Part shown: positions 3,237-4,814 of the stretch, in pieces
Position numbering within the stretch: position 1 is the stretch's first letter
How the letters are laid out: each line of letters opens with the position of its first letter
IMG/VR virus record: IMGVR_UViG_2778261560_000010
Length of the DNA stretch: 4,814 bases
Source: a virus
Taxonomy: Duplodnaviria; Heunggongvirae; Uroviricota; Caudoviricetes
Direction: 5' to 3' (one strand)
Notes under the pieces: model-generated
What the model was told of the DNA's origin: nothing
Database searches by the model: none
Seen by the model: only the letters and a program-made list of their open reading frames with translations
Position numbers and translations under genes: made by a program

Positions 3237-3267
3237 CCGGCAGGTTTCCCTGCCGGGTGAATTTGTT
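3237..3267. terminator. Candidate bidirectional intrinsic terminator between convergent small ORFs
   Basis: Perfect 8-bp GC-rich inverted repeat CCGGCAGG (3237-3244), loop TTTC, CCTGCCGG (3249-3256), followed on the + strand by GTGAATTTGTT. Lies between the stop of the + strand ORF (3227) and the stop of the minus-strand ORF (3266). The U-tract is imperfect. Confidence 0.35.
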
Positions 3268-3436
3268 AATGCACGTTTTGTGTATTTTCCCTCCGGGGAG
3301 AACAGGCAGGACATATCAGCATCCTGAAACAGGAAGCATTTTTTGGTTTGTATGTCTTGCCATTTTGAGATCGAGAACGGCGATAGATGAGCTGTAAGGG
3401 AGTCTTACAGGCAGGGCAAACAGGCTCTTTATCCAT
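3266..3436 (-). CDS. Putative small zinc-ribbon protein, 56 aa (two CPAC motifs), unknown function
   Basis: Minus-strand ORF; I place the start at the ATG at 3434-3436 because it has a perfect AAGGAG Shine-Dalgarno 9 nt upstream on the minus strand (revcomp of 3446-3451). The track's 64-aa version begins at an upstream ATG (3460) lacking an SD. Translation MDKEPVCPACKTPLQLIYRRSRSQNGKTYKPKNASCFRMLICPACSPRRENTQNVH contains CxxC...CxxC. Stop at 3266-3268. Confidence 0.35.
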   Translation of the reverse strand: MDKEPVCPACKTPLQLIYRRSRSQNGKTYKPKNASCFRMLICPACSPRRENTQNVH

Positions 3437-3512
3437 GATAAAGATCTCCTTTTTATGCATCTCTGCTTTACAGGAGACCGGGGAATATCATAGGATACGC
3501 CACGAGCTCAGA

Positions 3513-3672
3513 GTGAAGCATTGATGCTGTTTTTTACAGATTGACCCAGAATAGTTCGCGCTATCTGAGTCGCCATTTATGTAGTCCCGAAGTAAAGCAT
3601 TGATGCAAACTTGTCTAAATCGGCCCAGCATAGTTCCAGCTATGCTGGGTCTCCCTTTTATGTAGTATCCTG
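3513..3672. repeat. Two tandem imperfect direct repeats of ~79-81 bp (roughly 70% identical by eye)
   Basis: Unit A 3513-3591 and unit B 3592-3672 share GT(G/A)AAGCATTGATGC, a CCCAG.ATAGTTC..GCTAT core and TTTATGTAGT. Unit B carries a perfect 10-bp inverted repeat CCCAGCATAG (3624-3633), loop TTCCAG, CTATGCTGGG (3640-3649), followed by TCTCCCTTTTAT; the unit A copy is degenerate. Both units contain the small dyad GCAT-TG-ATGC. Confidence 0.55.
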
Positions 3673-3699
3673 TTGATTTGAAACATACTACATATACGC

Positions 3700-3922
3700 G
3701 CGATCCTACCTTCACTGGATAAAAAGTCAATAAAATGATCATTTTATGATCGTTTTCACCACCTAAGTCTTCGTTTTCTTTAAGTAAATAATCACCGCCC
3801 TGAATCATTGTTGATGACTTTTAAATCTATTTGTTGTATCAATTAAACAAATCGAATCGATCGTTTTTGTCGATCGATTGCATGAAAAAGGCATCAACAA
3901 CAAAGCAGGAGGTTATGCGGCC
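3700..3922 (+). promoter_or_regulatory. com-mom upstream regulatory region with clustered Dam (GATC) sites; candidate methylation-sensitive promoter region
   Basis: Five GATC sites in ~180 bp, at 3702, 3737, 3748, 3859 and 3872, against roughly ten in the 2-kb esterase gene. Two lie in direct repeats AATGATCATTTT / TATGATCGTTTT (3734-3756); two lie in a perfect 9-bp inverted repeat AATCGATCG (3855-3863), 7-nt spacer, CGATCGATT (3871-3879). Candidate weak sigma70 hexamers are ATGACT (3814-3819) / 17 bp / TATCAA (3837-3842), or alternatively a -10 like TAAATAAT (3785-3792) with a poor -35. com RBS CAGGAGG at 3906-3912. Confidence 0.5.
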
Positions 3923-4123
3923 ATGTATCGAAACATACGGTGCCGACACTGCAATAAGCTACTGGCACGGGCCAGTTTCAGTTATCTGGAAGTAAAATGT
4001 CCGCGCTGTAAAACCCTCAATCAAATCACATCTCCGAGCGCCACAGAGCACCCCACATACACAAGGAAATCCTGTCGTGGGGAACAAAAAGCAAGTTACA
4101 TCCCGTATCATCAGCACGCCTGA
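3923..4123 (+). CDS. com: Com-like zinc-finger translational activator of mom
   Basis: 66-aa ORF from the ATG at 3923, with CAGGAGG 10 nt upstream. [31 protein letters not shown] has the C-x2-C-x15-C-x2-C spacing and resembles Mu Com as I recall it (MKSIRCKNCNKLL...IRCPRCK). The track's 81-aa version starts at a TTG at 3878 inside the GATC palindrome, which I consider an artefact. Overlaps the next ORF by 47 nt. Confidence 0.8.
4051..4082 (+). promoter_or_regulatory. Candidate mRNA stem-loop sequestering the mom Shine-Dalgarno and GTG start (putative target of Com-dependent translational activation)
   Basis: CCCCAC (4051-4056) is the exact reverse complement of GTGGGG (4077-4082), which contains the mom GTG start. 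The 20-nt intervening sequence carries the SD-like AAGGAAA (4063-4069). Consistent with the known Mu mechanism in which Com binding unmasks the mom translation start. Confidence 0.4.
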
Positions 4124-4814
4124 ACTTATTCGCTATAACGACAATATCGTTGGTTATGGCTCCCGTGAGTTACGGGTTGAGACAATAAGTTGCTGGCTGG
4201 CCCGACTGGTCATCGTCAATAAACATTACAGCCACCGTTTCGTAAATAATTCATACCTTCATCTGGGCATATTTTCAGAACGGGAACTTGTTGGCGTAAT
4301 GCAATGGGGTTACGCCCTTAACCCAAACAGTGGTGCACGCGTCGTAACGGGTACGCAGAACCGAGAATATATGGAGCTGAACCGGCTATGGCTGCATGAC
4401 TGTATGCCGAGAAACTCCGAATCAAGGGCGATCAGTTACGCGCTCAAGCTAATCAGGCAGCTTTATCCGCAGGTGCAGTGGGTTCAGTCGTTTGCAGATG
4501 AGCGTTGTGGCTGTCTTGGTGTCGTGTATCAGGCAAGCAATTTTGATTATGTAGGCAGCCATGAATCAACATTCTATGAACTTGATGGCGAGTGGTATCA
4601 CGAGATTTGCAGGAATGCCATTAAACGAGGCGGACAACGAGGTGAACATCTGAGGGCTAATATCGACAGAGCCAGTGTGCATAAGTTCCAACAGTTTCGT
4701 TACATCCGGTTTCTGAACAAGAGGGCCAGAAAACGCCTCAACACAAAGCTATTCAAAGTCCAGCCTTACCCAAAACCACAAACAGTTAAAACTGGTTTGA
4801 AAGAGAGTGAATGA
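4077..4814 (+). CDS. mom: Mom-like DNA modification protein (adenine N6-acetamido/carbamoylmethyl modification enzyme of Mu-like phages)
   Basis: 245-aa [34 protein letters not shown]..., resembling Mu Mom as I recall it. Start is a GTG at 4077, the first possible start after the in-frame stop at 3993-3995, with AAGGAAA 7 nt upstream. Begins inside the 3' end of com, as in Mu. TGA stop at 4812-4814, the last bases of the window. Confidence 0.85.

Follow-up and report, generated by a model that had tools for sequence, protein, structure and literature searches.

A GATC palindrome upstream of com-mom in a Mu-like E. coli prophage as the probable half of a two-part, Dam-sensitive OxyR operator

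Which of the GATC sites that precede com and mom at the right end of a Mu-like E. coli prophage belong to a control region, and how does this region lie with respect to the promoter? Mom renders phage DNA resistant to many restriction enzymes, and the control of Mu mom is a classic of methylation-dependent regulation. The role of Dam and OxyR in this control is textbook knowledge (PMC3378877, PMC4461284, PMC2909390), and untimely expression of mom is toxic (PMC3378877). The window, i.e. the whole stretch of 4814 bases analyzed here, is the right end of such a prophage. An initial annotation had described five GATC upstream of com as one cluster predicting Mu-type control, and had pointed out within it a perfect palindrome, considered as distinctive and possibly located in the 5' leader. 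The genes of the window and the ribosome-binding site of com are as follows:

1-561: Gin-type invertase.
652-2709: SASA-esterase/DUF6645 protein of 685 aa, followed by two small DUF genes (DUF1378, DUF826).
3907-3912, + strand: Shine-Dalgarno AGGAGG of com, 10 nt 5' of the ATG at 3923.
3923-4123, + strand: com, zinc-ribbon translational regulator of 66 aa (Pfam Zn_ribbon_Com E 2e-12; PHROG gpCom E 5.7e-13).
4077-4814, + strand: mom, 245 aa, matching the full profile of Pfam Mom (E 3.9e-77) and overlapping com by 47 nt.

The two Pfam matches establish the com-mom assignment of the initial annotation, and mom is about 72% identical to Mu mom at the DNA level. From 3240 to its end, the window shows 95-99% identity to 210 E. 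coli records. This prophage type, the Sp18 type of O157, was found in 232 of 5426 complete E. coli genomes, O157:H7 and O111 strains among them; in the O157 strain N8B7-2 the region terminates a 38-kb Mu-like prophage located in the hyf operon. The SASA/DUF6645 gene, DUF1378 and DUF826 sit between the invertase and com, whereas in Mu com follows gin by at most 95 bp; this block looks like a cargo ('moron') cassette.

The five GATC upstream of com are located at 3702, 3737, 3748, 3859 and 3872. An enrichment over the whole window was rejected, as 17 GATC are observed vs 17.1 expected. Five GATC in some 180-bp stretch of the window arise in 3.9% of dinucleotide shuffles and in 3.0% of random placements, and a local shuffle of the 181 bp holding the five sites gives P 0.003. 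The concentration of five sites in about 180 bp is real and, by density alone, suggestive, being only marginally unusual (scan-corrected P about 0.03-0.04). These five sites are two separate things, a palindromic pair and three upstream sites, and it is the comparison across loci, not GATC density, that makes the palindromic element credible. The elements of the pair and its surroundings are the following:

3829-3843: OxyR-like half-site 1, ATTTGTTGTATCAAT, 7/10 matches, 31 bp upstream of half-site 2, without GATC.
3844-3859: 16-bp spacer separating the half-sites, in which substitutions are tolerated.
3855-3879: perfect palindrome AATCGATCG-N7-CGATCGATT, with two conserved Dam sites (3859-3862 and 3872-3875) 13 bp apart.
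3860-3874: OxyR-like half-site 2, ATCGTTTTTGTCGAT, 7/10 matches to the consensus ATAGnTnnnAnCTAT, with a GATC at both ends.

The palindrome is as perfect as described initially: its 9-nt arms (AATCGATCG at 3855-3863, CGATCGATT at 3871-3879) are 100% complementary, with 7 nt between them. The half-sites were scored against the OxyR dimer consensus in the Toledano form ATAGnTnnnAnCTAT; the form printed in the P22 gtr paper is ATAGxTxxxAxCATAT (PMC2909390). The 7+7 pair at a 31-bp offset is the best-scoring combination in the whole window, with geometry and score as in Mu. A score of 14/20 is reached by about 20% of shuffles of the 695-nt region and is not significant alone, so the operator model was tested by comparison across loci. 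In the window the partner half-site carries no third GATC (none at -18/-19 or -31 from the pair), and there is a single GATC pair, without the second pair of a gtr-type arrangement of four GATC. A further OxyR-like 15-mer without GATC, also with 7/10 matches, begins at 3807 and lies 22 bp from half-site 1, not 31-32. At the RNA level, an Rfam search matched no family and the predicted fold of 3845-3925 is ordinary (z -1.33). Two structures were tried and rejected: an inverted repeat (3799-3822 / 3886-3909) that might have masked the com Shine-Dalgarno, of which the 5' arm is in DNA missing from sister haplotypes and is partly (TTG)n/(CAA)n, and a hairpin TTGcATG..CATCAA following the palindrome which, as judged by eye, is not kept as a conserved RNA structure in all haplotypes (e.g. 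L034).

For the comparison across loci we collected 101 mom loci from genomes and viral contigs, together with 80 metagenomic Com loci. Of the 101 mom loci, 65 carry two GATC exactly 13 bp apart ahead of com/mom. When 14-15 representatives less than 80% identical are anchored on this pair, the conserved core is ATCGATCnnTnnnnnCGATCGATT, which agrees with the OxyR consensus at positions 1, 2, 4, 6, 12, 14 and 15. In 14 lineages with less than 80% identity, the score for a second half-site has its only sharp maximum at offset -31 (mean 5.50), the mean at 60 other offsets being about 2.7. Exceptions are loci L017 and L052, which peak at -32 (scores 6 and 8), and L006, where the arrangement is inverted, with a 9/10 partner half-site at +31 and an extra GATC also at +31. 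Extra GATC follow the same geometry: in 19 lineages (17 mom lineages, agn43 and the window itself) they occur solely at -18/-19 (11), -31 (4), +31 (1) and -63 (1) from the pair, positions that correspond to the ends of the partner or of a further half-site. Of the 19 lineages, 15 have a GATC at -18/-19 or -31; no extra GATC is present in the window, in L023 (a sister haplotype) or in L048. Most Com loci of non-enteric sources are without any GATC in the 140 nt upstream, which indicates that the element tracks Dam/OxyR hosts rather than Com.

Three other arrangements were observed among these loci. In L049 (IMG/VR 2861014001_000003, about 1219-1298), GATC at -63, -31, 0 and +13 relative to the pair mark three successive OxyR-like half-sites 31-32 bp apart, an arrangement that resembles the phase-variable gtr switch with its three half-sites. 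Four non-enteric mom loci (L010, L011, L014 and L097) have in common, in place of the GATC sites, a conserved dyad CCACAGTGA..CACTGTGAACCA..CCAAGGC about 60-100 nt upstream of com, with a GC-rich hairpin after it; it may be an activator or regulator site of that group. Finally, in a second E. coli/Shigella group of Mu-like phages (L061-L090, Com beginning MDSVRCKNC), GATC1 and GATC2 are 18 bp apart, at about -98/-80 from com, and the half-site ATAGTTTATGACGAT has 8/10 matches; the third site is now a decayed CATC, and the number of operator GATC thus differs between lineages.

Conservation within the prophage type was analyzed on 11 distinct haplotypes representing 27 loci. In 3829-3922, 18 positions are variable, all of them outside the 30 positions that make up the half-sites (hypergeometric P 4e-4, a value that is indicative only and overstates independence, because the haplotypes are related). 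The spacer varies at 3845, 3848, 3850 and 3854; with 17 more loci (15 metagenomic and two from E. coli genomes, 44 in total) one spacer position, 3852, is added and the half-sites are still invariant. An apparent variation at 3829-3834 was dismissed as an end-gap artefact of L023.

Alignment with the Mu mom promoter region, as had been suggested initially, matches the palindromic pair with GATC2/GATC3 of Mu in spacing and flanks. Half-site 2 and its flanks are identical to the agn43 (flu) site of E. coli at 21 of 25 bases. From these matches to the Mu and agn43 sites the palindrome is a homolog of a known operator; rather than a distinctive element, it is the conserved core of that operator. 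We consider it probable that the palindrome represents half of a two-part Dam-sensitive OxyR operator (3829-3843 + 3860-3874) placed before com-mom and overlapping the -35/spacer region of the promoter. What is seen in the sequences is the homology, the geometry of the site and its conservation; that OxyR binds there, that methylation affects this binding, and where the promoter lies are predictions.

The three upstream GATC have a different context. They lie 111-157 bp from the palindromic pair, and their neighbourhood includes the following feature:

3703-3730, - strand: leftward sigma-70-like promoter, TTGACT-16-TAGGAT, its -10 overlapped by the GATC at 3702.

The GATC at 3737 and 3748 are just upstream of the -35 of this promoter, which is kept with a different spacer in two relatives (TTGACT-16-TAAGAT in L048; TTGACG-16-TATAAT, with no GATC, in L049). 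A single extended region of Dam control over com-mom made up of all five GATC, as implied by the cluster of the initial annotation, agrees with the local density (five in 181 bp, local shuffle P 0.003) and with the counterparts of 3702 and 3737 present in L048. Yet the scan-corrected significance is only about 0.03-0.04, the spacings of 35 and 11 bp within the trio fit no OxyR half-site, and its three sites are placed at the leftward promoter, which is conserved, one in the -10 and two shortly before the -35. Moreover the trio is not kept in sister haplotypes whose operator is the same: L023 and L038 have unrelated DNA at this place and L027 is without the first site; the trio is also missing in L049. 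We therefore regard a single five-site control region as very unlikely. Mu-type Dam/OxyR control is retained for the palindromic pair, with its 13-bp spacing, its flanks and its half-site partner 31 bp upstream, and not for the trio. The GATC at 3702, 3737 and 3748 are outside the conserved operator and appear, from their position, to belong to a divergent transcription unit.

Several features were observed on the side of this leftward promoter. A unit of about 79 bp stands in tandem at 3512-3590 and 3591-3670, the two copies having diverged (74%); in O157 relatives it is single. Within the second copy, a T-rich tail comes after a perfect hairpin CCCAGCATAG/CTATGCTGGG (3624-3649). L048 and L049 carry this unit as well, with stem changes that compensate each other (CCCGGTAG/CTACCGGG), a sign that its structure may be conserved, as a terminator or an RNA; the unit has no Rfam match. 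The leftward promoter (3730 to 3703) points through a conserved stem formed by ATGTAGTAT (3660-3668) and ATACTACAT (3685-3693) and through the hairpin unit. Further downstream on the minus strand is a small zinc-ribbon ORF (MDKEPVCPACK..., within 3266-3460) with its own AGGAG Shine-Dalgarno. In RefSeq the whole 3266-3730 stretch is a frameshifted pseudogene, and PHROG and Pfam give only weak matches.

The position of the operator relative to the com-mom promoter was then considered. In the window 49 nt separate the end of the operator from the com ATG, vs 76 nt in Mu, i.e. it is 27 nt closer, so it would overlap the RNA-polymerase binding region. This is a property of a whole clade, composed of the window type, L048, L049, L050, the Edwardsiella locus L004 and the metagenomic loci L149-L155, in which 51-57 nt separate the second GATC from the start codon vs 76-83 in Mu-type loci. 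In this clade, -10 hexamers with 5/6 matches are found 8-10 nt after the second GATC: TATACT in L048 and L049, TATAGT in L050, TATCAT in L149 and L155. They stand at index 24-26 from the first GATC (each P 0.03-0.06 in a 16-position window), so that the hexamers of three independent lineages coincide within 2 nt; L004 carries TGnTAGATT, and overall the -10 elements of the relatives are at index 24-31. From this position the palindrome would lie over the -35/spacer, the operator at about -66..-21, and the start is predicted about 27-30 nt upstream of the ATG, compared with 23 nt in Mu.

The promoter position rests on these relatives, because the window itself has no acceptable -10 and its candidates score no higher than the shuffle median. 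Specifically, no -10 of the form xAxxxT is present between the palindrome and the Shine-Dalgarno in the window or in the O157 haplotype. When the 170 nt preceding com were scanned with a sigma-70 weight matrix in 16 loci, nothing in the window exceeded the shuffle median; the same scan fails to recover the real, activator-dependent Mu promoter and is hence uninformative. Two weak candidates and a variable segment can be listed:

3867-3872 and 3892-3897, + strand: candidate promoter TTGTCG, 19-bp spacer, CATCAA, scoring below the shuffle median.
3814-3819 and 3837-3842, + strand: alternative candidate ATGACT, 17 bp, TATCAA, scoring 5.0.
3880-3892, + strand: hypervariable 13-bp segment, with 10 of 13 columns varying among the 11 haplotypes at constant length.

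The CATCAA of the first candidate is TATCAT in haplotypes L027 and L034, where the score is 8.6; the second scores 6.3 in L023/L038, for a shuffle median of 7.9. Whichever of the candidate starts is considered (about 3849, 3896 or 3904), the operator would fall within -75..+25, inside the polymerase footprint.

The second candidate corresponds to the leader position of the palindrome proposed initially, in a form similar to agn43. With a -35 at 3814-3819, a -10 at 3837-3842 and +1 near 3849, the palindrome would be at about +6..+30 and OxyR, covering -20..+25, would block initiation or early elongation. In line with this are the agn43 OxyR site itself (about -12..+35, its GATC pair being part of the leader), the -35/17/-10 arrangement common to both upstream-sequence subtypes (that of the window and that of L023/L038), and the window being without a usable -10 downstream of the palindrome. 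We nevertheless find it unlikely: TATCAA is without the conserved T at position 6 and scores 5.0-6.3, below the shuffle median, the leader would be 74 nt long vs 23 nt in Mu, and its predicted fold is the ordinary one given above (z -1.33). In addition the candidate is absent from L048, L049, L050, L004 and L149, which have a good -10 downstream of the pair. With 5/6 hexamers 8-10 nt past the second GATC in three related lineages, a leader position is not favoured, and most likely the operator overlaps the -35/spacer region.

The hypervariable segment 3880-3892 coincides with the -10 hexamer position of the related lineages, and is flanked by the invariant operator and the invariant Shine-Dalgarno region. 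Its variability may mean that selection on how strongly the promoter drives a toxic gene is relaxed or diversifying. It could also mean that the promoter has decayed, the operator being a conserved relic and com-mom silent or transcribed by read-through only. Besides the 10 of 13 variable columns, the missing xAxxxT in the window and in the O157 type and the toxicity of untimely mom (PMC3378877) go in this direction. Com and mom are however intact, in a region 95-99% conserved in 210 E. coli records, the invariance of the half-sites and of the Shine-Dalgarno argues for ongoing selection on the control region, and the promoter of Mu itself is likewise unrecognisable by consensus. A decayed promoter thus appears doubtful, and slightly more so than the leader position.

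In Mu a site for the activator C lies between operator and promoter. The 27 nt missing relative to Mu hold the C site TTATgccccaATAA there, so there is no room for a Mu-type C site and, on this alignment, the Mu arrangement cannot apply to the window. The motif TTAT-N6-ATAA was not found upstream of com, and is absent too from the related O157 prophage. The latter encodes, at 10964-11389 of locus L003, a C ortholog (39% identity to Mu C, 27% to Mor) that matches the PHROG family 'late transcriptional activator'. Its promoters Plys and PI share a 22-nt box, CTGAWATYCCGCAAARCCYGCC, located 38 nt before a TAYGCT -10 (30 nt for the CCGCAAA core); in the O157 prophage the box occurs solely at Plys and PI, with nothing similar near com. 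A 10-mer, CCGCCCTGAA (3795-3804), obtained by local alignment of Plys/PI with 3780-3922, was rejected as a C site, being variable among haplotypes and absent in L023/L038. Relatives of the L023/L038 type have, about 150 bp upstream of com, different DNA with a divergent gene on the minus strand, and on this strand CCGCAAAGC is found, a match to the core of the late-promoter box that the type has at Plys/PI.

It could be imagined that the palindrome itself binds a phage protein, either a C-type late activator or another regulator, instead of the host OxyR: it is a perfect dyad at about the distance of Mu C from the likely start, and no separate C site is detectable. The dyad is however the same in Mu, whose C site lies downstream of the PvuI (CGATCG) sites (PMC3378877), and it is present in agn43, which has no phage activator. 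It is also kept across phages with differing C proteins (39% identity to Mu C), and in the O157 prophage Plys and PI are preceded by the unrelated box CTGAWATYCCGCAAARCCYGCC. This is the least probable of the readings considered, and we hold it for highly improbable.

For the OxyR operator, the following mechanism can be proposed. In unmethylated or newly replicated DNA, reduced OxyR would bind the two half-sites 31 bp apart, and when bound would hold the toxic mom off; methylation of both GATC at the ends of half-site 2 would block this binding. As the operator would cover the -35/spacer of a weak promoter with its -10 at about 3880-3897, repression would take place by direct occlusion of the polymerase, as for the OxyR position of agn43 and OxyR(BC) of gtr, and not from upstream of a C site.

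What appears new is the variant layout: two GATC only, an operator that would abut or overlap the core promoter, no room for a Mu-type C site, and a hypervariable -10 segment. We found in the literature no description of the mom promoter/operator of the Sp18 type and no methylome data for its sites. A further step, which we put forward as a speculation, is that in this clade (the E. coli Sp18 type, Edwardsiella and related loci) the operator moved onto the core promoter and displaced the C site. Mom would then be mainly under an agn43/gtr-like switch, possibly phase-variable in lysogens, and not strictly late and C-dependent, and the hypervariable -10 would be a sign that the level at which a toxic gene is expressed is still under selection. 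If the operator does lie on the core promoter without an activator site, one OxyR/Dam module would have been redeployed between an activator-dependent form (Mu) and an occlusion-type form (agn43, gtr), with a possible epigenetic heterogeneity of mom expression among lysogens. If the promoter is merely weak and C-dependent, the element is an ordinary homolog of a well-known one.

The closest known system is 'region I' of the mom promoter of phage Mu, in which methylation of the GATC by Dam keeps OxyR (MomR) off. In Mu (NC_000929), the sequence before com is cgacGATCgaatcaattaaatcGATCggtaatacaGATCgattatgccccaataacc. As for 3859/3872 in the window, GATC2 and GATC3 are 13 bp apart with flanks AATCGATCG..GATCGATT (dyad AATCGATCG-N7-aGATCGATT), and the half-sites ATAGAAAACGACGAT and ATCGGTAATACAGAT score 7+7/20 at a distance of 31 bp. 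The two PvuI (CGATCG) sites of Mu are 18 bp apart with the C site downstream, in agreement with the fragment sizes of PMC3378877. The mom reverse primer of PMC3378877 is stated there to anneal downstream of +56, which places the Mu +1 at position 2277 of locus L002. It follows that the Mu GATC are at -87, -69 and -56, the half-sites at -99..-54 and the com ATG at +23. These positions agree with the Mu footprints, which we take to be -104 to -46 for OxyR and -55 to -28 for C. The differences are that half-site 1 of Mu bears a third GATC at its 3' end, where the window has none, and that downstream of the operator (-99..-54) Mu has the C site TTATgccccaATAA, then a T6 run and a -10 TAAGAT, whereas the window has neither C site, nor T6 run beside a -10, nor TAAGAT.

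The second comparison concerns agn43 (flu), whose dyad in K-12 is ATCGATCG-tttatat-CGATCGAT. Its regulatory region reads ATAGAATAAAACGAT, then 32 bp, then ATCGTTTATATCGAT, with GATC 19 and 13 bp apart. Besides the identity of half-site 2 and its flanks, agn43 and the window share a two-part site, a 13-bp GATC pair and, as predicted for the window, an operator that overlaps the RNA-polymerase binding region instead of standing upstream of an activator site. In contrast to the window, agn43 has three GATC, a 32-bp offset and 8+8 consensus matches. There the site covers about -12..+35 relative to the start of a sigma-70 promoter and acts as a heritable ON/OFF switch for a surface protein of the host.

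The third is the gtr switch of Salmonella P22, in which each 13-bp GATC pair is contained within a single OxyR half-site and half-sites are 32 bp apart (PMC2909390). GATC1/2 are at -110/-97 and GATC3/4 at -46/-33, over the promoter, and methylation of a single GATC pair abolishes OxyR binding, even on one-pair probes (PMC2909390). Gtr, like opvAB, shares with the window the 13-bp GATC pair in a single OxyR half-site and half-sites spaced for reduced OxyR. It differs by its four GATC in two pairs and its three half-sites, so that OxyR can take either of two alternative positions, one activating and the other repressing. In the window there is a single pair, with one clear partner half-site; the relative L049 may be closer to gtr.
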